This document shows positions 2,371 to 26,508 of a stretch of DNA of 64,000 bases, piece by piece. This stretch comes from a virus (lineage: Duplodnaviria; Caudoviricetes). The stretch covers positions 1 through 64,000 of IMG/VR virus record IMGVR_UViG_3300035208_002851; one strand, 5' to 3'. The notes beneath the pieces are model-generated. The model was not told the DNA's origin. It ran no database searches and saw only the letters and a program-made list of their open reading frames with translations. Both the position numbers and the translations under genes were made by a program. Positions within the stretch are counted from its first letter, which is position 1. Each line of letters starts with the position of its first letter.

Positions 2371-3170
2371 TGAAGGCATTGCTGTTAGTTGGCAACAATG
2401 ACCAGGCCTCCTCTAAACAGGTTGCTTTAGTTGCCAAAGAAAATGATTTAATACTGGTAGTTCTACAGGCGAAAGAGTTTCCCCGATATGAAAGGCAGTT
2501 TTTTACAAGCACCCTGGACTCTAAGCAGTGCTTGTTTCACCTCACGGATGCGCAAGCTTTAAAGCAGGATGCGTCAAAGAAACTTTTTGAGTTCATGAAC
2601 GCTTCGCCTCACAGATTTATTTTGGGCGGCAACGCTGAAACTCCTTGGTTTGTTAAGGTAGGCTGCGTTGTTAAAAACATGGATGATTCTAAAGCTGAGC
2701 TGACAAGTCAGCTACAGGTTCTATTGACAGAACCCAATAGAACTGTAGTACGAAAGTATCTTGAGGATGCTGACTTAATACATTTATTCCATATATTAAA
2801 ATATGGTGCATGGAGAAATCCTGAAAGTTTAGAAGCTCTAATTTTAATAAACCAAAACCTATTTAAAGTAAAACGCGATTACTTGTTGTCGTTACTGAGC
2901 TGGGTTCTACCAGCTAAGCCATATGCGTTTGCTTCTTCAAAGAAGCAGGGGGCTCCCCAGGAAGGTTCAATCATGAAAAAATTAGAAAGTTTAAACCCGA
3001 AGATGAAGAAGTCTGAACAAGCGGACGCTTTTCTTTTAATGAAAGCTTGCAAGGATTCTATAGACGGTTTAGACCTTTCTGAGGAAGAAAAAACATTTCT
3101 AGGAATTGAGGAGAAGCTGGTAGAACCCGAACAGGCAGTGTTTTGTAGGACTATTGAGGAGTTCTTTTAA
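2370..3170 (+). CDS. Degenerate replication factor C large subunit-like protein
   Basis: KALLLVG start with a decayed Walker A, RFC-like FILGGN strand, C-terminal PIP-like TIEEFF. Lies near RFC-S. Confidence 0.6.
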   Translation: MKALLLVGNNDQASSKQVALVAKENDLILVVLQAKEFPRYERQFFTSTLDSKQCLFHLTDAQALKQDASKKLFEFMNASPHRFILGGNAETPWFVKVGCVVKNMDDSKAELTSQLQVLLTEPNRTVVRKYLEDADLIHLFHILKYGAWRNPESLEALILINQNLFKVKRDYLLSLLSWVLPAKPYAFASSKKQGAPQEGSIMKKLESLNPKMKKSEQADAFLLMKACKDSIDGLDLSEEEKTFLGIEEKLVEPEQAVFCRTIEEFF

Positions 3171-3349: not shown

Positions 3350-4297
3350 ATGAATGTCCTAACTGAGAAATACCGTCCAGAAAAGCGTGAAGATATAGTT
3401 GGAAATAAAGAAACCATAGATAAAATCTTCAGCGTTGTCAACTCTGGTAAACTTTGCCATATGATATTTGAAGGAATTGCCGGCTCTGGTAAGACAAGTA
3501 CTGCCAAAGCTATAGCTAAACAGCTTTTTGGCACCAACATCAAAATGAACTACCTGGAGTTGAACGCGTCAGACGAGCGCGGTATAGAAACTGTTCAGGA
3601 AAAGATAAAGATGTTCGCTAAGGTGGTTCCCTTCCAGACGGGTGTGAAGTTGATTCTCCTTGATGAGGGAGATGAAATGACAGCTACTGCCCAGAATGCT
3701 TTGCGAGGAATAATGGAGCAGTATGCAAACATCTGTATTTTTATATTTACAGCTAATAATGCGGAGCGCCTTATAGAGCCTATTAGAAGTCGTTGCGAAG
3801 TTTTCCATTTTGGACCAATATCTACAGATGATATGATAGTAAGATTAACTAAAATTTATGAAGACGAAAGAAAAATTCCAATAACATCTGTACCTAGTTT
3901 AGAAGAACAATTAGCTCTTAGAAAAATTGCAGAGTATTCGCAGGGTGACATGCGCAGAGCATTGAATCATCTGCAAGTTTTACTAAGCTCAGGGGAACCC
4001 CTAAGCGAAGCTTCTGTAGATACAATTAAACCTATAGACTTCGGGAAGATGATTTTTGATGCTTTGCAAGCGGGACGCTTCTTGGAGGCACGAAGCCATG
4101 TTTTCAAAGCTCTGGAGCTGGGCTATGATGCGAGAAATCTATTGAGTCTCTGCCACAAAGTATATATAGCTTCTGACGTAGATATTTCAACTATGAAAAT
4201 AGCTATAATAAGTTTAAGTGAATGCGACTATAGAATGACACAGGGTGTTGACAAAGTTCTAGCCTTGGATGCAGTTCTACTGAGGTTGATGAAATAA
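3350..4297 (+). CDS. rfcS: Replication factor C small subunit (clamp loader)
   Basis: EKYRP, GIAGSGKT, LELNASDERG, LLDEGD, SRC, GDMR motifs. Confidence 0.95.
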   Translation: MNVLTEKYRPEKREDIVGNKETIDKIFSVVNSGKLCHMIFEGIAGSGKTSTAKAIAKQLFGTNIKMNYLELNASDERGIETVQEKIKMFAKVVPFQTGVKLILLDEGDEMTATAQNALRGIMEQYANICIFIFTANNAERLIEPIRSRCEVFHFGPISTDDMIVRLTKIYEDERKIPITSVPSLEEQLALRKIAEYSQGDMRRALNHLQVLLSSGEPLSEASVDTIKPIDFGKMIFDALQAGRFLEARSHVFKALELGYDARNLLSLCHKVYIASDVDISTMKIAIISLSECDYRMTQGVDKVLALDAVLLRLMK

Positions 4298-5993: not shown

Positions 5994-6842
5994 GTGTCAC
6001 AAGCAAAACCAGCGGGAACATCTTCTTGGACAGCTAATGTCAAGAAGGATGCTCCAGTAGTAGCAGCTGAAGAGGCTGCTCCTATTGTTACTTTCCAGAA
6101 GCTTTCAGATGCGGAACCAGTTAAATATCTAAAGATAGCTGTGACAGGTAGACCCAAAACAGGAAAGACCAGATTTGCTCTTTCTTGCCCTTCCCCCATT
6201 TATGTTATCGAAACTGAACCTGGTCTTAAACCACTTAAAAAATTGTTCCCAGATAAAGAAATTTTTTATATAGATGCATATGAACCCGATCCATCTGGTA
6301 TTTTCGAAGCGGATGTAACAAAATCTATAGCAAAGATTGATGCAGCAGTAAAGATTATCAGAAAGATGTGTATTGAGAAGCCAGATAGTGTAGGAACAGT
6401 GGTTTTAGACTCAGTAACTGATGTTTGGAAATGGGTCATGGAATGGATGAAGCTAGACATACTCAAGATTGACAGAACAGCAAGGGTTAAGCAGCAATGG
6501 GACTACGGTTACGCGAATACAAAATATCAAAACATTATTATGCAATTGATATCTCTGCCAGTACATATTGTGTTAACAGCGCAAGACAAGGAAGAATATG
6601 CAGGCGCAGGTCAGCCTTCGGGTGTCTATGAACCAAGTTGGATGTGGCAAACACCACAGTGGGTAGATTTGCGGATAAATTTGGTAAGGCTTCAAAGTGC
6701 AAAAGAGCAATCAGTCAAATATGTTGGTTCAATTATAGAATCTCGACACATGGATGAAGACAAAGTTTCCTTAGCAGGCGAAGTTGTCTATGATATCGAC
6801 TTTGATAAAGTCATGGGTTTAGTTAAACGCAAGAAGGAGTAG
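5994..6842 (+). CDS. AAA_24/Sak4-like P-loop ATPase (recombination/annealing)
   Basis: GRPKTGKT Walker A, VVLDSVT Walker B, HIVLTA. Confidence 0.8.
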   Translation: MSQAKPAGTSSWTANVKKDAPVVAAEEAAPIVTFQKLSDAEPVKYLKIAVTGRPKTGKTRFALSCPSPIYVIETEPGLKPLKKLFPDKEIFYIDAYEPDPSGIFEADVTKSIAKIDAAVKIIRKMCIEKPDSVGTVVLDSVTDVWKWVMEWMKLDILKIDRTARVKQQWDYGYANTKYQNIIMQLISLPVHIVLTAQDKEEYAGAGQPSGVYEPSWMWQTPQWVDLRINLVRLQSAKEQSVKYVGSIIESRHMDEDKVSLAGEVVYDIDFDKVMGLVKRKKE

Positions 6843-6846
6843 TAAA

Positions 6847-6942
6847 ATGTTTAAAGAAGAAGAATGGGAAGATATAGAAGAAGACGATGAAGATTGGCCC
6901 GACAACAATGATGAAGAGGACGATTGGCTCGAAAAAATTTAA
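6847..6942 (+). CDS. Highly acidic 31-aa peptide
   Basis: MFKEEEWEDIEEDDEDWPDNNDEEDDWLEKI, AAGGAG SD upstream. Confidence 0.55.
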   Translation: MFKEEEWEDIEEDDEDWPDNNDEEDDWLEKI

Positions 6943-6957
6943 AAAGGAGGTTAAAAA

Positions 6958-7776
6958 ATGGTTGACAATACAATAATGAATAATACATTGAAATTAGGTA
7001 AATTACCAGTTAAACAAGATAAAAGAACTATAAAATTTAAAAATATACTTAAAACAGTTGCTCTTCCTGAAATACCGGAATCTTTTGATGAAGATAATTC
7101 TCTTGGAATAACAATAGTTGGCAGTATCTATGGTAATGATACATGGGGAGATTGTGTTATTGTTGGCAGAGCTAATCAAACTTTGAGGTTTGAAAGTTTT
7201 GAGCAAGGAACAATAATACCCATAACTACACAAGAATGCTTAAATGAATATTGGAGTGAACAGGGAGTTACTGTTAGTAAATGCGCATTGATAAACTGGC
7301 TTAGAAAAGTACAACGTCCCGACAATGGTTTAGTTTATTTGGATTCATTAAAAGATTGGCGCACTGATGGTTGGAATGTTGGAGGAAAACAATATAAAAT
7401 CTATGCATTTGCATCTGTTAATAAGGAAGATCAAACCGAAGTAAAGCAGGCTTTAAGTATTTTGGGAGGACTACAGGTTGGCATTCAACTCACAGAAGGA
7501 GCCATGAATCAATTTAATGAATCAAGGGTTTGGGATGTTACTAAAGATGATGGTAAAGTACTTGGTGGGCATGCAATATATGTTTTATCATATGACAAAG
7601 ATGGTTTAACATGTATAACGTGGGGTAAACGACAGAAAATGACATGGAATTGGTGGAATACATATGTTGACGAATGCTATGCTATTGTTGACAATAAAGA
7701 TGAATGGATAAATAATAGTAAATTAGATATTGAACTTTTAAATAGTTATTTAAAAGAAATAACTGGAGGTGCATAG
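6958..7776 (+). CDS. Papain-like cysteine peptidase (candidate lysis enzyme)
   Basis: GND..GDCV catalytic Cys, GGHAI catalytic His, ITWG. GGAGG SD. Confidence 0.75.
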   Translation: MVDNTIMNNTLKLGKLPVKQDKRTIKFKNILKTVALPEIPESFDEDNSLGITIVGSIYGNDTWGDCVIVGRANQTLRFESFEQGTIIPITTQECLNEYWSEQGVTVSKCALINWLRKVQRPDNGLVYLDSLKDWRTDGWNVGGKQYKIYAFASVNKEDQTEVKQALSILGGLQVGIQLTEGAMNQFNESRVWDVTKDDGKVLGGHAIYVLSYDKDGLTCITWGKRQKMTWNWWNTYVDECYAIVDNKDEWINNSKLDIELLNSYLKEITGGA

Positions 7777-7778
7777 TA

Positions 7779-7985
7779 ATGGCAAAATTATATAAACTTT
7801 CAACAAGTTTAGCTTACAGTACATCTGTTGGTATACCAGTTGCAGTAATTTTTGGAGTAATTGCAGCTTTGAGTTCTGTTGTAGCTAATATTGATACAAC
7901 TTCTACCGTAGAAATTGTTTGTTTAGCAATTGTTGCGGGGTTAACAGCAGGATTACAACATATTTCAACTGAGAGTGAAACTTAA
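7779..7985 (+). CDS. Two-TM small membrane protein (holin-like)
   Basis: Two hydrophobic helices, directly after the peptidase. Confidence 0.55.
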   Translation: MAKLYKLSTSLAYSTSVGIPVAVIFGVIAALSSVVANIDTTSTVEIVCLAIVAGLTAGLQHISTESET

Positions 7986-7988
7986 AAA

Positions 7989-8041
7989 GACCCCTGATGA
8001 GTCTTTGAAACAGGACGAAACCCCATTTTTGGGGTAGGGTT
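7989..8041 (+). ncRNA. Type I hammerhead ribozyme
   Basis: GACCC-CUGAUGA-GUCUU(UGAAAC)AGGAC-GAA-ACCCCA(UUUU)UGGGGU-A-GGGUU. Complete core and three stems. Predicted cleavage after GUA at 8036. Confidence 0.93.
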
Positions 8042-8047
8042 AAATAA

Positions 8048-8872
8048 ATGACCAAGTTTAAATGTAAAATTTCAGATTTAGAAACAATATCGAGACTTGT
8101 AAGTTCTAAAGGCAAAAATATTGAGGGTAAGGAATACCAAGCTATTACAGATTGTCTAATAGAAGCTTCTGAAGGTAAGCTTACTGTGAAAGTTATGGAT
8201 ATCCAGAGAACCTTTGCAGTAGGACTGGAATATAAAAACATTGATGTCTCCGAAGCAGGGCAATTGCCGATAGGCGACCTGTCGAACTTTACAACGTTTC
8301 TACAGAGATTTGAACCTCAGGATGAGGTAACTGTTTATACTGTAGAGAACAAGATTTTTATAGAACGCGAATCACCTAAGAAGGTAGGTAAACTACCACT
8401 TGTTGCGGTAGAGGCTTTGTCGTCACATCCAGCACCACCGTTAAACGATCTTAAGCGGAGTGTTAATGGTTTTCCAGCTACTGGTAAGATGCCGTTGGAC
8501 TTAGAGATTTCTATTGAAGCGGAGACATTTTCTTCTATCTTTGAAGATGGCAATGCTATTAAGGAGAGAATTCTGCCTATTAAAGTTGAGGATGATAAAC
8601 TTAAGATTTCTATTGGTTCGGAAGTCTATGGTAGTTTTGAAACGGAATTGATTCCTGAAAGTGTTCGAGTAGATAGTTTGGAATCACCTGCGGTAGCAGC
8701 AAAAACTCAGTCAAGTTTTGGTAATGGTTTAGACAACATCTTTTCAAACTTGCAGGGAAAAATAAAGATTTACATGGGTAATAATACTGATATGACACCG
8801 TTGTGTGTTCAACAGGATACCGACAAATTTAAATACATTGCCCTATTAGCTCCCTACGCAGTAGGTAATTAA
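8048..8872 (+). CDS. pcn: Sliding clamp (PCNA-like)
   Basis: Size, two-domain clamp pattern, VMD....AV.L, PL.......YIALLAP C-terminus. RFC present. Confidence 0.8.
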   Translation: MTKFKCKISDLETISRLVSSKGKNIEGKEYQAITDCLIEASEGKLTVKVMDIQRTFAVGLEYKNIDVSEAGQLPIGDLSNFTTFLQRFEPQDEVTVYTVENKIFIERESPKKVGKLPLVAVEALSSHPAPPLNDLKRSVNGFPATGKMPLDLEISIEAETFSSIFEDGNAIKERILPIKVEDDKLKISIGSEVYGSFETELIPESVRVDSLESPAVAAKTQSSFGNGLDNIFSNLQGKIKIYMGNNTDMTPLCVQQDTDKFKYIALLAPYAVGN

Positions 8873-8873
8873 A

Positions 8874-9041
8874 ATGGAAGAAAAGGAAAAAAGTTTAAAT
8901 TATCATGAACCATTTGTAGCAGAATTTATAGATACACACAAATGTCCAAATAATAAAAACAAACTTGTATACGACGAAATCAAATATGAATTTAAATGTC
9001 CCAAATGCGGTTACATTATTTGGAATGTTCAAGCCATTTAA
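8874..9041 (+). CDS. Small zinc-ribbon protein (TFIIB-ribbon-like)
   Basis: HKCPNN..LVYDEIKYEFKCPKCGYII. Confidence 0.55.
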   Translation: MEEKEKSLNYHEPFVAEFIDTHKCPNNKNKLVYDEIKYEFKCPKCGYIIWNVQAI

Positions 9042-9055
9042 TGGGGTGTGTTTAA

Positions 9056-9994
9056 ATGCTGCGGTGTATTCATTGCGGAGCGGAATATAAGGAAGAGTTC
9101 AACAAGAATCAGTGCAATAACTGCGTTGAAAAACTGAATCTAACAAACTTATATTCTACTTCTATAAAGAATTTTTCTTTTAAACCTTCTCCATTAGAGG
9201 AGGTTAACCCCAATTTGTTTTTAAAGAGAGAAGATAAAAATGAGTATAGTGGAACTTTTAAGGATAGAAAGTCTGTTTATGTTCTAAGGGAAAATCAGAA
9301 TTTTTCTTTAGCTTCTAGCGGAAATCAAGCATTATCATTGGTTAAATTTAAAGAAGCTTATAATAATCCTATAATTATTACAAAAAATGGTACATATCAT
9401 ATTTATGTTTCGAAACCTATTGAAGCTGTTATAAATCTTTTTGTTTCTCCGTATATAAACGATAGAAAATTTAAAGAACTTAAAAAATATTATAAATCTA
9501 TAAATTTTACTGATAGAATTCTTTCTATAGATGAATTAACTCAGAATGATAAAAATATATTTAATTTGACTAATGGAATGGACTCCATAGGTGCGTCAGC
9601 TTACTATAGTCTTGCAATGGAACTTGAAGAAGAAAACTTTGATTATATTCTGGTTCCATGCGGATCTGGAGAGTTATACACGGCTTTGTCGTGTTACTTC
9701 CATTTACTTCGGAAAAAGGGAACCCCTATGATAATACCGATTCAGTCTAAGCTGAAGGAGACGGATGCAATTTACACGGATTTCGTGGCTTCGCAGCCGT
9801 TTATAGATTTCTTTAAGGAGAAGTTTGGGCAGACACCTTATGTTTTGGAAGATGAAACCAAAACGCTTAAAAGTCTACAAGCTTTCAGTGATATATACAA
9901 CTGCGAACTAAGTTCTGCTGTTGTATTTGAAGCGTATGAAAAGTTGAAACCTAAAGGGAAAGTATGTTTGGTAATCACTGGTGTTAAAAAATGA
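9056..9994 (+). CDS. PLP-dependent fold-II enzyme, threonine synthase-like
   Basis: N-terminal CxxC..CxxC, LFLKRED.N..GTFKDR, ASSGN, VPCGSG, ELSSA. Confidence 0.8.
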   Translation: MLRCIHCGAEYKEEFNKNQCNNCVEKLNLTNLYSTSIKNFSFKPSPLEEVNPNLFLKREDKNEYSGTFKDRKSVYVLRENQNFSLASSGNQALSLVKFKEAYNNPIIITKNGTYHIYVSKPIEAVINLFVSPYINDRKFKELKKYYKSINFTDRILSIDELTQNDKNIFNLTNGMDSIGASAYYSLAMELEEENFDYILVPCGSGELYTALSCYFHLLRKKGTPMIIPIQSKLKETDAIYTDFVASQPFIDFFKEKFGQTPYVLEDETKTLKSLQAFSDIYNCELSSAVVFEAYEKLKPKGKVCLVITGVKK

Positions 9995-11643: not shown

Positions 11644-12171
11644 ATGAAAAATTGGGGAACATATATTTGCCCAATTTGTAAAAAGGAGTTTCAAAAAAAT
11701 TGTGGAAATCACAAATATTGTTCTCCTAGATGTACTCAAGACGCAATCAATTTACAACGGGAAGAATTCATGAGGAAACACGGTATTACAAATGGAGATT
11801 ATTGTAAGGATTATTATAAAAGAAATAAGGAAGAAAGGCAACAACATTCGGTAAATTATAGACAAAATAATTTAGATTCTTGTAGAAAAAGAGATGTAGA
11901 TAGAAATAAACGAGAAAGAAAAGAGTTATTTCAGTTAATTGGTGATTCATGTATAGTTTGTAATTCTAAAGAAGATATCAATTTCCATGAAAAACATGGC
12001 AAAGAACATATTACCCATTTAGATTATTATTTTGAACATTATAAAGATTTTGTACCGATGTGCCGTTGGTGCCATTTATCTGCACATGTTTTTGTAAAAA
12101 TGGTTACAAATAATTATAATTTAGAAAAATTTTTTGAAGTAGTAGATGAATTATTAGAAGGTAAATCATGA
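11644..12171 (+). CDS. Zinc-finger/HNH-like endonuclease
   Basis: CPIC..YCS..C, CIVC...FHEKH...MCRWCH. AT-rich, immediately before PolB. Confidence 0.6.
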   Translation: MKNWGTYICPICKKEFQKNCGNHKYCSPRCTQDAINLQREEFMRKHGITNGDYCKDYYKRNKEERQQHSVNYRQNNLDSCRKRDVDRNKRERKELFQLIGDSCIVCNSKEDINFHEKHGKEHITHLDYYFEHYKDFVPMCRWCHLSAHVFVKMVTNNYNLEKFFEVVDELLEGKS

Positions 12172-14498
12172 AGTTAATTACGATTGAAGAGTATGAGCAA
12201 AGTGGTAAAGCCCACATAGCCCTCTTCACAAGGGATGAAACTGGTAAACATATAGATATCATCTCAGATTTTAAACCTTATTTTTATCATTTTTCTGAAA
12301 CCCCAACACTTTACAAATCTATTAACGGCGACTATGTTTCCAAATTGGAGTTCGACTCATACAATGTTGTTAAACAAGAAAGAGTGAAATATTTTAGAAA
12401 CTATGAAGCCGATTGTCATTTTACACAAAGATTTTTGGTCGACAAAATCGACAAAATAGAGCAAACAAAACTTAGAATACAGTACACTGATATTGAAAAG
12501 GATATAGAGACTAATCAAACTATAAGTATTGGAGTTTACGATTCTTTCTTATCTAAAGGTATTGTTTTTGTTTGGAGACCCGATTTACAACCCCACAAAG
12601 AAGATAAAGAGTACACCTTCGAAAAAAGCGGTTACAAGTTTAAAACAACAGTCCACTATTATAATACTAGAAAATCAATGTTCCAAGATTACATAAACTT
12701 TATTCAGGTTACTGACCCTGACATTTTAACTGGTTGGTTCGTTGTAGCCTACGATTTTAAGGAGGTTCTACAAGAGATTCAATCTTTAGGATTGAATTGC
12801 TCAGATTTATCACCGATTAAGAAAGCTTATATGATAGGTGATACAGTTTCTAAAACTGAAAGTAATATCAGAATCTACGGTAGAATTCTATTTGACATGC
12901 TTAAAGCTTATAGAAATCTTCAGCCCTCAAGGTTGGAAAGTTATTCTTTAGAAAATATTGCTCAAAAAGAACTCGATGAAGGCAAGCATAAGCATAGAAA
13001 ATTCACAGAGATTTGGAATTATATAGATGAACTGGTAGAATACAATATTAAAGATTGCTTGCTTGTTAAACGCCTTGATGATAAAAAAGGCCTGTTAAAT
13101 TACTATGATGAAGTGCGTAGATTCATTGGATGCTCTTGGGATGCTTTGTTTGCAGAATCGAATATGTGGGATACTTATTTAATGCGCAAAGTGCATGGTA
13201 AATTTGTGCTACCTACAAAGTCAAAGATTTTCATACCTGAATATGAAGGCGCAAGAGTTTTGCAGCCGCTGCTTAAAGGTATTCACAAAAATGTTCTTGT
13301 TTTAGACTTGAAAAGCCTATATCCATCTATTATTATGACGGCAAATATGGGACCAGATACATTATCCCAGAAAGGAGACGATTGTAATAATCTTCCGAAT
13401 GGAATTTCATTTAAGAAAAGCCCGATAGGAATTCTACCCGAATCTTTATTAGAACTTTTAGAGATGCGTAAACGGTTCAAAAAAGAGATGAAGATGCATC
13501 CATTTGGTTCTCCTGAATATGAAGCATTAGATCATAAACAATTTACTGTTAAAATTTTAATGAATAGTTTATATGGTATCATGGGTTATGGTGGTTTTAG
13601 ACTTGCAACACCAGAGGTAGCATCATCCGTTACATTCGTGGGTAGAGCAATTATCACTCACATCTATGGCTTTTTAGAAGCGAAAGGCTATAAGATGTTA
13701 TACTCGGATACAGATTCAGTATTCTTCTGTGGTAAAGGTCAAACTTTAGGAGAACTAAAGGATGAGATATCTTCGCTTGTAGATGCAATAAATGTGGACT
13801 TACCAGTGTTTATAAAAGAGTTCTGCGGATCAGATAATAATTATATAAAAATCGAAGCTAAGAAAATCTATAAAAACTTGATGATTAGCGAAAAGAAATC
13901 TGGTAAGAAAGGCGTTACAGCTAAGAAGAGATATGCTGGGTTGATACTTTGGAATGAAGGTGAAGATATAGATACTTCATCTAATGAAGCTTTAGATATT
14001 GTTGGTTTTGAGCAAAAGCGTAGCGATAATTCACAACTTAGTAGAGAGTTGCAAAAGAAAGTTTTCCGAATGCTGCTGGATGGTTGTGAAACAGCGGACC
14101 TAAAAGCTTATATATCTGGTGTGATAACATCACTTAGCGGCAACAAGTTTGACTATGAATACGTGGGGATCCCGAAAGGGTTAAGTCAGTCTCTAGAAGC
14201 TTACAGGACGGACAATCCCCACCGCCGCGCATCAATCTATAGCAATAAATACTTGGGTGGAAAATTTGGGATCGCTGACAAACCAAAAATTATATATGTA
14301 CGTGGGACTGGAAAGTATCCTAAAACGGATGTTATCGCGTTTAATCAAAATGAAGATATCCCAAAAGATTTCGTTATGGATGTTGAAACAATGATTGACA
14401 AGTCTATTAACCAAAAGTTGGATCATATTTTGGATGCCGCAGGTTTGAATCTAGAAGAGTTATTACATAGAACAAGTAAACTTTCGGAGTTCTTTTAA
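12168..14498 (+). CDS. polB: Family B DNA polymerase
   Basis: Exo TDIE, DLKSLYPS, KILMNSLYG, YSDTDS, KKRY, C-terminal PIP (KLSEFF). Confidence 0.97.
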   Translation: MKLITIEEYEQSGKAHIALFTRDETGKHIDIISDFKPYFYHFSETPTLYKSINGDYVSKLEFDSYNVVKQERVKYFRNYEADCHFTQRFLVDKIDKIEQTKLRIQYTDIEKDIETNQTISIGVYDSFLSKGIVFVWRPDLQPHKEDKEYTFEKSGYKFKTTVHYYNTRKSMFQDYINFIQVTDPDILTGWFVVAYDFKEVLQEIQSLGLNCSDLSPIKKAYMIGDTVSKTESNIRIYGRILFDMLKAYRNLQPSRLESYSLENIAQKELDEGKHKHRKFTEIWNYIDELVEYNIKDCLLVKRLDDKKGLLNYYDEVRRFIGCSWDALFAESNMWDTYLMRKVHGKFVLPTKSKIFIPEYEGARVLQPLLKGIHKNVLVLDLKSLYPSIIMTANMGPDTLSQKGDDCNNLPNGISFKKSPIGILPESLLELLEMRKRFKKEMKMHPFGSPEYEALDHKQFTVKILMNSLYGIMGYGGFRLATPEVASSVTFVGRAIITHIYGFLEAKGYKMLYSDTDSVFFCGKGQTLGELKDEISSLVDAINVDLPVFIKEFCGSDNNYIKIEAKKIYKNLMISEKKSGKKGVTAKKRYAGLILWNEGEDIDTSSNEALDIVGFEQKRSDNSQLSRELQKKVFRMLLDGCETADLKAYISGVITSLSGNKFDYEYVGIPKGLSQSLEAYRTDNPHRRASIYSNKYLGGKFGIADKPKIIYVRGTGKYPKTDVIAFNQNEDIPKDFVMDVETMIDKSINQKLDHILDAAGLNLEELLHRTSKLSEFF

Positions 14499-20221: not shown

Positions 20222-20472
20222 AACAATATATTGGCGGTACTAAGAAAGAACAAAAAGATGAACATAGTAAACATCTTACTATGCAGGATGTTTGCGATGC
20301 TATTAATATACAACTTTCTGCTGGTGTTTACAATGTTCATTCTACCATTACCATAAATCCTTATACAACAATATCTGGAACTTTTACAACATCATACGTT
20401 GATCCTTCAATTTTTACAACGTTTCAAAAACCAAACCCTAAATATATAGGCGGTTACAAAATACAACAGTGA
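20218..20472 (+). CDS. Hypothetical protein
   Basis: Coupled ORF. Confidence 0.5.
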   Translation: MKQYIGGTKKEQKDEHSKHLTMQDVCDAINIQLSAGVYNVHSTITINPYTTISGTFTTSYVDPSIFTTFQKPNPKYIGGYKIQQ

Positions 20473-21473
20473 AACATATGTGGACTGGTCCCTTTAATTC
20501 CTACCCAAGAGAACTTGGGTTCCCACAACGATCCTGTATAGTCTACAATGTAAATGAGTTTCTAGAAAAAGTTAACGTTCACAACTTCAAAACAGATGTT
20601 TACACATCGTTGTACTCATTTGATAAATTACAAGCAAACGGTAAACCAGACTATAATACTGCAAGAATTTCTCATATTTATTTTGACCTCGACAACAGCA
20701 ACTGTCTAAACAATTGTAGAACTCTTCATAGATATCTACAATCGGAGAACTTGAGTCATTGCATCTATTTTTCTGGTGGTGGTTTTCACGTTCATGTATC
20801 TACAGAATACCCTAATTTTTTAATGAATAAGAAAGCAGCAACGTTCAACTCTGTTATGGAAATCGCAGATAAATTGGGACTTAAAGTGGGCATAAATGAG
20901 GATTCTGATATAGATGCTCATACCGTAGGAGACATTGCCCGCATTGTTAGAGTTCCCAATACGTATAACTTGAAGAGAAAACGTTTCTGTATTCCAATCT
21001 CAGAAACTGACCTTGAGAAATCTATAGAAGAAATCCATCAATTGGCACAACATCAGGTTCCCACCTGTTACATTTATGGGTTGCGAAGCTTAGATTTAAA
21101 CCCTTATGATAGGGAACCTGTAGAAGAATACAGAATTCCCGCATTAGAAATATCTGATGAATCTATAGGTATTGATAACATCAATGTAGATAAATTTCCA
21201 GACTGTGTTAAAACTTTATTAACCAAAAAGAATATAAAGCACAGAGAGAGATTTGTAGTAATAACTTACTGTAAAGAGCTGGGGTTGCCCCTCCGAGATA
21301 CGATTCTTCTATTGAAGAAACATCTTGACCCCATTACTTGGAACCATTGTGTCCATGAGGAGAGGCAACCCGTCTTTATCTACAGACGGGCCGACTTAGG
21401 CTTCCCAAAATGTGAAAAAATAAAAGAGGAAGGATTGTGCACAAAAAATTGTGGAGAAAGAAAGAATGAGTAA
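20469..21473 (+). CDS. Archaeo-eukaryotic primase, PriS fused to a PriL-like Fe-S domain
   Basis: YFDLD, SGGGFH, RIVRVPNT. C-terminal FPDC..H.ER..C..C...GLC. Confidence 0.88.
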   Translation: MKHMWTGPFNSYPRELGFPQRSCIVYNVNEFLEKVNVHNFKTDVYTSLYSFDKLQANGKPDYNTARISHIYFDLDNSNCLNNCRTLHRYLQSENLSHCIYFSGGGFHVHVSTEYPNFLMNKKAATFNSVMEIADKLGLKVGINEDSDIDAHTVGDIARIVRVPNTYNLKRKRFCIPISETDLEKSIEEIHQLAQHQVPTCYIYGLRSLDLNPYDREPVEEYRIPALEISDESIGIDNINVDKFPDCVKTLLTKKNIKHRERFVVITYCKELGLPLRDTILLLKKHLDPITWNHCVHEERQPVFIYRRADLGFPKCEKIKEEGLCTKNCGERKNE

Positions 21474-24615: not shown

Positions 24616-26508
24616 GTGAGAAAAGCAGAACTTAAATTTAGAAAGATGCTTGAAGGTATAGACCCAGAATTCTCTGAGTTTATGCTTGAACAAGATTATA
24701 AACTTTTAGAGTTAGATGGGGTAACCTCAATTAACCCCTTTGAATTCAAGAAAAACTATTGGACTAAAAACACAGAAGATGTCACCATTAATGCAAATGC
24801 AAACGTAGGAAACACGGGAGATAAGAAATCTTTTTGCAATCTTACCGCGGAAATTGTGGCTCCCGTAAATAAATTATCAACTCTATATCTTTTCAGAAAA
24901 TATGGTAATAGAATTCAAACTGGTAATGGCGACTCATTAGTAAAAAGTATAATGGATGGTTCAGTTTATTATCATAATAGCACTCTTTCTGATTTACCTT
25001 ACTGTATCGGTTTAAGTACGTACCCACTAATTAGTGAAGGTCTAACTTTTGGTGCTCTTAAAAGTTCTCCGCCAAAACGACCGACAAGTTTCACCAATCA
25101 AGTTATCCGATGGGTTCAAATAGCGTCAAACCATTTTGCTGGTGCTACAGCACTGACAGATTTCATCCAAAACTATTCTTATTTTACATTACAGAACCCA
25201 GCTTATTCCGATAAAGAACGTGAAAACGATTTCCAAAACTTAATCCACGGGATTTCCGATGAAATCAGATATGCCGTGCAAAGCCCATTTGTCAACATAT
25301 CTATATCCAGCCCAGACACAATGAGATTCTCAATGTCAAACTATCTATGGGGCGATCATAAGATAGAAGACATGATGGACGAAATAATGAAGAACCAGCT
25401 TCTTTACGCACGATTTATTGCAAGAGGTCAACTTGATAAAGGTAACCCAGTGGGTCTCCCATATAGATTCCCAATCACAACTGTAGTTGCAGATCCCTCT
25501 TTTGAAAAAGAATATCCTAACGAATGGCGCGAAATCTTAGAAAGCAATGCAAATCTTTGCCACCTAAACTTCTTTAATTCGTGGAATACTCCGTTGAAAT
25601 CTCTCAGTATGTGTTGTAGATTATCCCCCTCTATAGAAGATTTGTTAAAACTTAACCTAAATCAGACCTTCGGTTCATTTCTACAGATTGGTTCCCACGG
25701 TGTTTGTAGTATAAATCTACCACGCATAGCGTATGAAACAAAAGATGAAGATAAGTTCATAGAACTCCTTAAAGTGAGAATGCAAGTGGCACACGACCTA
25801 TTAAAGATTCATAGAGAAGAAATCTTACAGAAGCGTCGCTTAAAGTACAACTTCTTCTTTAATCATGGATATCTAAACTTGAAACGTCATTTCTTTAGCA
25901 CTGTTGGTTTCATAGGATTAGCAAATGCTGTAGAAATTTTGGGTATGAAAATTACAGATGCTTCCGGTCTTAAGTTTGCTAAAAAAGTGCTAAGTTTCAT
26001 GAAAGAAGAAACAGTTAGATACAGCCAAGAAGATGGTGTATTGTTTAACATTGAGGAAGTACCAGCAGAAAGCGCTTCAGGAACTCTAGCCCAAAAAGAC
26101 AAAATCTTAGTTGGAGGGTCTTACCAATTTTACGATAGTCAGTTTGTTCCTCTCTCATACGATATTAGTTTAGTAAAACGTATAGAAATTGAAGGCGAAT
26201 TACAAGAACATTGTACAGGTGGCAGCATTTCACATCTAAACTTAGATGGTCGCCCAGAACCAAAAGCTTTATATAAATTTACAGAAAATATATTACATAA
26301 TTCAAAGCTACGTCAGTTTGCTTTCAACACAGGCTTCACAATTTGTAAAACAGGTCATAATTCAATGGGGGTTTATCCAAAATGTCCAGAATGCGGCGCA
26401 ACCGACAATGAATACATAACCAGAATTGTTGGGTATTTCACTCCGGTTTCTGCTTGGAACAAAGCAAAACAATTAGAATTTAAATCAAGACGTTGGGAAA
26501 AATTATGA
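24616..26508 (+). CDS. nrdD: Anaerobic (class III) ribonucleotide reductase
   Basis: PYC, MCCRL, SINLPRIA, PAES, C-terminal Zn site and RIVGY glycyl-radical motif. Confidence 0.95.
   Translation: MRKAELKFRKMLEGIDPEFSEFMLEQDYKLLELDGVTSINPFEFKKNYWTKNTEDVTINANANVGNTGDKKSFCNLTAEIVAPVNKLSTLYLFRKYGNRIQTGNGDSLVKSIMDGSVYYHNSTLSDLPYCIGLSTYPLISEGLTFGALKSSPPKRPTSFTNQVIRWVQIASNHFAGATALTDFIQNYSYFTLQNPAYSDKERENDFQNLIHGISDEIRYAVQSPFVNISISSPDTMRFSMSNYLWGDHKIEDMMDEIMKNQLLYARFIARGQLDKGNPVGLPYRFPITTVVADPSFEKEYPNEWREILESNANLCHLNFFNSWNTPLKSLSMCCRLSPSIEDLLKLNLNQTFGSFLQIGSHGVCSINLPRIAYETKDEDKFIELLKVRMQVAHDLLKIHREEILQKRRLKYNFFFNHGYLNLKRHFFSTVGFIGLANAVEILGMKITDASGLKFAKKVLSFMKEETVRYSQEDGVLFNIEEVPAESASGTLAQKDKILVGGSYQFYDSQFVPLSYDISLVKRIEIEGELQEHCTGGSISHLNLDGRPEPKALYKFTENILHNSKLRQFAFNTGFTICKTGHNSMGVYPKCPECGATDNEYITRIVGYFTPVSAWNKAKQLEFKSRRWEKL

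Follow-up and report, generated by a model that had tools for sequence, protein, structure and literature searches.

Hammerhead ribozymes have been known in phage operons since 2011, when Perreault et al. (2011) proposed that they process long viral transcripts into shorter mRNAs (PMC3088659). Clustered prophage hammerheads cleave polycistronic constructs of ~2 kb in vitro (PMC3088659), and in the haloviruses HF1 and HF2 a hammerhead lies 13 nt before the start of an early helicase gene, with a transcript 5′ end mapped within 3 nt of the cut (PMC3088659). RNA viruses of fungi and plants also have type I hammerheads in their 5′ UTRs, where, according to one report and as far as that account goes, self-cleavage creates a translation-competent 5′ end (PMC13725137). 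The biological role of the hammerheads in phage operons is still unsettled, and related viruses in which the copies at a single gene boundary are intact, relocated, decayed or absent offer a natural test series.

Here we describe such an element from the IMG/VR record IMGVR_UViG_3300035208_002851, of which positions 1-64,000 (the 64,000-nt stretch referred to below as the window) were analysed. The element, on the plus strand of the window, adds a new example of this ribozyme type and no new kind of element; it is a clean canonical case in an uncultured, probably archaeal virus lineage outside the haloviruses. Like the hammerheads of phages and prophages (PMC3088659), it has a canonical core and is placed between co-oriented genes of a viral operon, the flanking genes vary, and small ribozymes or RAGATH RNAs are found at related loci (a Pistol ribozyme at the locus labelled L013 and a RAGATH-14 RNA at L059). 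It differs from them in being a single copy instead of a member of a cluster, in being type I with a short open stem I and an oligo-U loop III, and in belonging to a virus whose host is probably archaeal. Because only one copy is present in 101 kb, tandem ribozymes and an excised circular RNA were ruled out here.

The nearest precedent for a function is the hammerhead of HF1 and HF2, known as HHphage (PMC3088659; PMC7230728). Both elements lie in the early or replication region of a tailed virus, archaeal in the one case and probably so in the other, and both would leave a very short leader, the cut being 13 nt before the helicase there and 11 nt before PCNA here, such that the predicted cut close to the PCNA start parallels a halovirus case that has transcript-mapping support. 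HHphage, which is adapted to high salt, has atypical core insertions (2a and 2b) close to C3 and stem I, whereas the core in the window is standard. HHphage also heads the first ORF of its transcript, whereas the window element lies after upstream cistrons, and the subfamily to which the latter belongs differs by sequence from HHphage and is widespread. The 5′ UTR hammerheads of RNA viruses resemble the element in lying immediately upstream of a viral ORF, but the setting described for them is one of eukaryotic hosts, RNA genomes and cap-independent translation, and the window is from a DNA virus (PMC13725137).

The element and its neighbouring genes

The element lies within a 62-nt gap (7986-8047) between an upstream stop codon (TAA, 7983-7985) and the ATG of the PCNA gene at 8048. 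A type I hammerhead, complete with canonical core and three helices, occupies 7989-8041 (+). A reading of the letters and open reading frames alone (the sequence-only reading) had already placed the stop at 7985, the start at 8048, the gap of 62 nt and a cut after 8036, and all of its coordinates hold. The parts of the element and the genes around it are as follows.

5994-6842, +, Sak4-like AAA_24 ATPase (Pfam AAA_24, phrog_124); syntenic in relatives; left border of the variable interval
6958-7776, +, 272-aa protein with a papain-like (C1 peptidase) predicted fold; phrog_19005 (function unannotated)
7779-7985, +, 68-aa protein with two hydrophobic helices, putative holin-like, from the translation
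7989-7993, +, 5′ strand of stem I, GACCC; G7989-C7993 pairs with G8037-U8041, 5 bp
7994-8000, +, 5′ part of the catalytic core, CUGAUGA (C3-A9); exact consensus
8001-8016, +, stem-loop II, GUCUU and AGGAC with loop UGAAAC; 8001-8005 pairs with 8012-8016
8017-8019, +, 3′ part of the catalytic core, GAA (G12, A13, A14); consensus match
8020-8035, +, stem-loop III, 6 bp, loop UUUU; A8020-A8025 pairs with U8030-U8035
8036, +, H17 (A8036), with the predicted scissile bond at 8036/8037; position from the hammerhead consensus
8037-8041, +, 3′ strand of stem I, GGGUU; partner of 7989-7993
8037-8047, +, 11-nt leader that would be left on the PCNA mRNA, with a 5′-OH end, after the predicted cut
8048-8872, +, PCNA-fold sliding clamp, 274 aa; AlphaFold2 pLDDT 87, pTM 0.86

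All the letters that define the hammerhead class are present in the window: those of the core, the closing pair of stem II (G10.1:C11.1, here G8001:C8016), the first pair of stem III (A15.1:U16.1, here A8020:U8035) and an H17 other than G. The topology is type I because stem I is open-ended. Stem-loop III includes a run of five Ts at 8026-8030.

The unconstrained minimum-energy fold of the element is the exact hammerhead three-way junction, at -18.7 kcal/mol (z = -2.3). A descriptor scan found one match in the window, and only 3 of 400 Markov-randomised windows matched even with laxer stem requirements. A covariance model, R1, was trained on 19 independent hammerheads from viral contigs, with the window and its relatives left out; it scored the element at 55.9 bits, with an E-value of ~3e-16 over 112 kb for which the calibration is rough and the margin very large. 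This score is within the range of 31-82 bits seen across matches of the subfamily described below. A chance motif was ruled out by the randomised-window scan, the R1 score and covariation in the family. The sequence, the fold and the model score together bear out the complete type I hammerhead, GUA site and 11-nt leader of the sequence-only reading, and on these grounds 7989-8041 is a genuine cis-acting type I hammerhead, cleavage itself being predicted.

The gene downstream had been called PCNA in the sequence-only reading, and structure prediction agreed: although no Pfam match was found for the 274-aa protein, its AlphaFold model has a PCNA fold, and the top Foldseek matches were archaeal and eukaryotic PCNAs (E ~1e-13, TM 0.69-0.80). 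Upstream, the 272-aa protein belongs to a large viral family for which 116 homologues were found, none of them in 26 loci related to this one. Its structure neighbours in the ESM Atlas are Peptidase_C1 clusters (TM 0.70-0.76), some of which are fused to lysozyme or peptidoglycan-binding domains. The 68-aa protein matched no Pfam or PHROG family and had no homologue in the same 26 loci. With a predicted C1 fold in one protein and two hydrophobic helices in the other, a lysis-like role for the pair, as had been proposed, is plausible. The pair (6958-7985), a papain-like protein and a membrane protein whose genes have strong Shine-Dalgarno motifs, sits inside the replication block, and was probably acquired recently as an accessory cassette, since none of the 26 related loci has it.

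From 1153 to 30092 every gene lies on the plus strand, in close packing, and within the tight, co-oriented block at ~4.8-16.3 kb the 62-nt spacer is among the few truly non-coding gaps. The virus encodes an archaeal/eukaryotic-type replisome set (3350-4297, 8048-8872, 12168-14498 and 20469-21473) made up of an RFC-like clamp loader, PCNA, a family B polymerase and a weak PriL-like match. Its NrdD (24616-26508) shares 70% identity across 598 residues with a gene on L151, a contig of 6.2 kb from the bin of a Candidatus Bathyarchaeia genome, a match that hints at the host or at a related provirus. From these genes, an archaeal host seems likely for this tailed virus.

A type I subfamily of viral contigs and its coverage in Rfam

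Viral contigs in IMG/VR were queried with the core and stem II string common to the window and one relative, and more than 119 contigs carry a match. The search pattern had no stem I or stem III requirement, and 110 of the 128 matches listed complete a type I hammerhead; most of the remainder have the same stem-loop II in a type III permutation. In a 63-sequence family alignment CUGAUGA is invariant or nearly so and GAA is invariant, and the stem-loop II of the window is a close variant of the conserved one. At H17 the family has C in 94, U in 11 and A in 4 members among the matches listed, G being excluded by the design of the descriptor. A core reading CCGAUGA, with C instead of U at position 4, was seen in 7 of the 128 matches listed, all otherwise intact; these include L083, L093, L110, L107, L028 and L095, and the same core occurs in the syntenic copy at L009:2930-2936.

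Covariation was assessed in an alignment of 103 distinct R1 matches, which is fitted to the R1 model, a caveat that applies to the pairing and covariation figures alike. In it 97.3% of cells pair, compared with 35-48% when the partners are slid, and the covariation score is 0.56, compared with ~0.06 in the slid controls. Changes on both sides were found at 13 of 16 pairs, including all 5 pairs of stem I and 5 of the 6 pairs of stem III. Independent support comes from the relatives in the clade of the window virus, whose stems I, II and III differ and which all fold, unconstrained, as hammerheads.

Across 91 distinct members from the matches listed, the hammerheads are intergenic and co-oriented with their neighbours, and the median distance from the upstream stop to their start is 4 nt; a same-strand ORF of at least 100 aa contains the hammerhead in only 2 of the 91. 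The next ORF begins 20-45 nt past the cut, in most of these members with a Shine-Dalgarno motif, whereas the distance in the window is 11 nt. The window fits the cistron-junction pattern, with a stop that ends at 7985 and a stem I that starts at 7989. The genes on either side vary across the wider family. By sequence and context, the window element belongs to a large subfamily whose members sit at cistron junctions on viral contigs. Other structured RNAs occur within ~1 kb of family hammerheads, namely a Pistol ribozyme at L013:984-1054 (47.7 bits) and a RAGATH-14 RNA at L059:170-394 (170.9 bits), both above their gathering scores, which is consistent with the known ribozyme-rich regions of phages.

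The sequence-only reading had proposed an Infernal search with the Rfam hammerhead models as a check, and the outcome was divided: hammerhead matches appeared below threshold, and no curated model reached its gathering score. At gathering thresholds nothing was reported for the window element. At permissive thresholds the best curated match was RF03152 (RAGATH-1-hammerhead), with 33.4 bits against a gathering score of 56.3, followed by a partial match to RF00008 (Hammerhead_3, clan CL00010), with 24.2 bits against 48.5. The core and stem-loop II of the window align well with both models, and the consensus stem-loop II of Hammerhead_3 is close to that of the window. Hammerhead_3, however, is a circularly permuted type III model and aligns only in part, and the 5′ hairpin specific to RAGATH-1 is not formed in the window element. 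Membership in RAGATH-1 was rejected, as the score is below threshold and the columns of that hairpin align with non-pairs inside the upstream coding region.

The same search was run on 14 loci with canonical relatives of the element and reported no type I copy; only circularly permuted type III copies appeared there, below the gathering score. Even at E = 0.01 the hammerhead models of Rfam 15 are silent on the type I copies at L013, L014, L033, L046, L047, L061 and L090, which score 65-80 bits on a simple dedicated model. The silence of Rfam is no evidence against the window element, because canonical members of the type I subfamily are missed as well. This looks like a gap in the curated coverage of an abundant type I viral subfamily, and routine annotation will therefore overlook the subfamily.

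Patchy conservation and the proposed role of the predicted cut

The reading that we favour, with a probability of roughly 0.7, is that this genuine type I hammerhead cleaves an early polycistronic RNA co-transcriptionally at a cistron junction. Once RNA polymerase has passed 8041, the three-way junction would fold and the RNA would cut itself between A8036 and G8037. The upstream RNA, with the accessory genes, would then end in the folded ribozyme with a 2′,3′-cyclic phosphate, and the RNA for PCNA and the genes downstream would begin with a 5′-OH and the 11-nt leader that lacks a Shine-Dalgarno motif, after which the two halves of the transcript could differ independently in stability and translation. 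What is observed at this locus and in its family is the motif, the fold, the family membership, the covariation, the syntenic conservation and the genomic context; by analogy with the phage elements, we infer cleavage and its use in operon segmentation. Separation of the upstream from the downstream cistrons by cleavage, as the sequence-only reading had it, would be the standard reading for such elements (PMC3088659).

Some features of the element count against this reading. Stem I has only 5 bp, loop II has 6 nt compared with the conserved 8-nt loop of the family, and GUA is one of the less common cleavage triplets (4 of 109 family members among the matches listed). Loop II is nearly invariant in the family, and stem I is 5-6 bp long with a conserved A on its 5′ side, a combination that suggests a contact between loop II and stem I; the window has the A (A7988) and a shorter loop II. 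Because of the short stem I and the deviating loop II, the tertiary contact for fast cleavage at physiological Mg2+ is only putative in the window.

Conservation was followed through the PCNA gene. No close relatives by DNA or protein were found in a phage collection, nor were any found in a search of viral contigs with the single PCNA protein or in a search of genome contigs with a PCNA alignment. Homologues of the PCNA protein were recovered at 48-72% identity (14 proteins), together with 18 further loci from metagenomes. The synteny in relatives runs from the Sak4-like AAA_24 gene through variable small genes to PCNA, PALP and a methylase, and every relative has its own set of genes between Sak4 and PCNA. 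Hammerheads with different stems were found in this interval in the following relatives, whose PCNA proteins are 36-54% identical to that of the window.

L009:2924-2997, before PCNA, cut 9 nt from the ATG; 57.5 bits, core CCGAUGA
L134:555-610, before PCNA, cut 9 nt from the ATG; 44.7 bits
L142:74-125 (the same in L144), before PCNA, cut 44 nt from the ATG with an AGGAG motif between; 50.3 bits
L135:922-985, further upstream in the interval; 44.1 bits
L008:2302-2358, further upstream in the interval; 31.5 bits, variant core

Stem II covaries in two of these relatives, L142 and L135. Conservation is thus partial: six relative loci have hammerheads in the same interval, one has a decayed copy and others have none. 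The decayed copy is in L004, the closest relative fetched (PCNA 67% identical), at L004:2965-3036, with a fold z of -3.6. It keeps the same stem I as the window, the stem III hairpin, the loop II sequence of the family and the three-way junction, but its core is dead, with CUUAGA for CUGAUGA, GAU for GAA and a G:C pair at 15.1-16.1. It looks like a ribozyme in decay. An aberrant element is located upstream of PCNA at L132:500-601, where CUGAUGA and GAAA are split by three hairpins instead of one stem II; it has a U/A-rich stem III hairpin and scores only 10.5 bits on R1.

The sequence-only reading had explained the ribozyme by its neighbours, proposing that self-cleavage uncouples toxic lysis genes from the replication genes, and this rationale is not supported. 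The pair is plausibly lysis-like by its predicted structures, and cleavage would indeed separate it from PCNA. Neither gene, however, has a homologue in the 26 related loci, although six of these carry a hammerhead between Sak4 and PCNA; the ribozyme is thus not tied to the lysis-like genes. Three distinct relatives (four loci) have a hammerhead just upstream of PCNA without the pair, flanking genes are not constant in the wider family or in the phage elements described previously (PMC3088659), and the two proteins are only putatively toxic or lytic. It is therefore very unlikely that the ribozyme exists specifically to detach a toxic peptidase and holin from the replication genes. The recurrent feature is instead the variable interval between Sak4 and PCNA, mostly its boundary just before PCNA, and not the lysis-like genes.

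That variability raises the question of whether the hammerhead has an adaptive role at all, as it might have arrived with, or be the scar of, a cassette exchanged in a hypervariable interval, intact in sequence and on its way to loss. The window falls together with L004 (decayed) and L005 (none) on the PCNA tree; the state in which a hammerhead abuts PCNA needs at least 3 changes, sister pairs differ, and the clustering of states is not beyond that of shuffles. The element is dispensable, because the nearest relatives on this tree have a decayed copy or none. It is absent at L005, L006/7, L010, L130, L131, L133 and L137-139, and L130, a 106-kb record that lacks a hammerhead at PCNA, has none elsewhere either. 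The junction with a dead core in L004 and the exchange of genes between Sak4 and PCNA in every relative would also fit a passenger, and a near-identical stem-loop II and a recurring stem I in unrelated viral contigs suggest horizontal spread. A passenger without a role is nevertheless unlikely in our view, because the core in the window is fully canonical, compensatory change maintains the stems across relatives down to 36% PCNA identity, and the placement right after a stop and before a start is kept family-wide, which speaks for functional selection in those viruses that have the element. From the scatter of states on the PCNA tree, the element is maintained where present, yet often gained, moved and lost.

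The oligo-U loop III and the short leader

Loop III has a run of 5-7 U in 6 of 6 canonical copies of the clade (the window at 8026-8030, L009, L008, L134, L142 and L135), though their stem III sequences differ. The decayed element of L004 (T6, at about 3005-3015) and the aberrant element of L132 have the run as well. Outside the clade it was found in 1 of 100 distinct family members among the matches listed, and its presence is independent of the G+C content of the locus. A Fisher test of this clade specificity gives 4e-9, a value that overstates independence because the clade copies are mutually related. The clade-specific run is a small, new and testable observation, and together with the very short leader it is the only point at which the locus might open something new.

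One account has the archaeal RNA polymerase terminate at T tracts five to six residues long (PMC2253867), and another describes U-tracts and aCPSF1 as together setting the efficacy of archaeal termination (PMC8716108). On this analogy, the ribozyme could conceivably contain a nested terminator or pause site. In the strongest form of this idea, the upstream transcript would end at an archaeal terminator or pause site formed by the stem III hairpin and the oligo-T tract, with the hammerhead core secondary or vestigial. A T run of at least 5 in every canonical clade copy, its rarity outside the clade, the retention of the hairpin and T6 in L004 after loss of the catalytic core, the behaviour of the archaeal polymerase at T tracts as those two accounts describe it, and an archaeal-type replisome with a Bathyarchaeia-linked relative of NrdD would all be in keeping with it. 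We give it hardly any credence, as five Ts are common in a genome of 34% G+C, the host domain is only inferred, and a plain terminator would need neither the canonical core conserved among five distinct relatives nor the near-canonical one (CCGAUGA) of L009. Termination within loop III would also block formation of the ribozyme, and the two activities would therefore compete.

In a bolder reading the two would be combined in a two-step gate, in which the polymerase either stops in loop III, so that the transcript of the accessory cassette ends there, or reads through, whereupon the ribozyme cuts and PCNA is translated from a leaderless-type mRNA. The released PCNA mRNA would have a 5′-OH, a leader of 9-11 nt and no Shine-Dalgarno motif, and initiation would depend on the 5′ end. 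In this clade, whose viruses probably infect Bathyarchaeia, the nested terminator would then set the ratio of accessory to replication gene expression. We regard such a gate as decidedly unlikely, and cleavage at the cistron junction remains our preferred account of the element.

Other signals of transcription were sought around the element. A scan of 6800-9100 for bacterial-type promoters and terminators found no more sites than in shuffles, and no conserved promoter was seen directly upstream of the ribozyme across relatives, the upstream region in L009 being G+C-rich coding sequence. The one terminator-like match that overlaps the element, on the minus strand at 8006-7986, was rejected, as it is an alternative pairing of the letters of stems I and II and no credible minus-strand gene leads toward it.

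The leader at 8037-8047 has no Shine-Dalgarno motif, and strong motifs are found at neighbouring genes (4822, 6958 and 7779). The leader after the predicted cut is similarly short, at 9 nt, in L009 and L134. Across relatives the contrast between PCNA genes with an abutting hammerhead and the others is less sharp: in relatives that lack the hammerhead the motif is often weak, and the 3′ strand of stem III, being rich in G, can mimic one.
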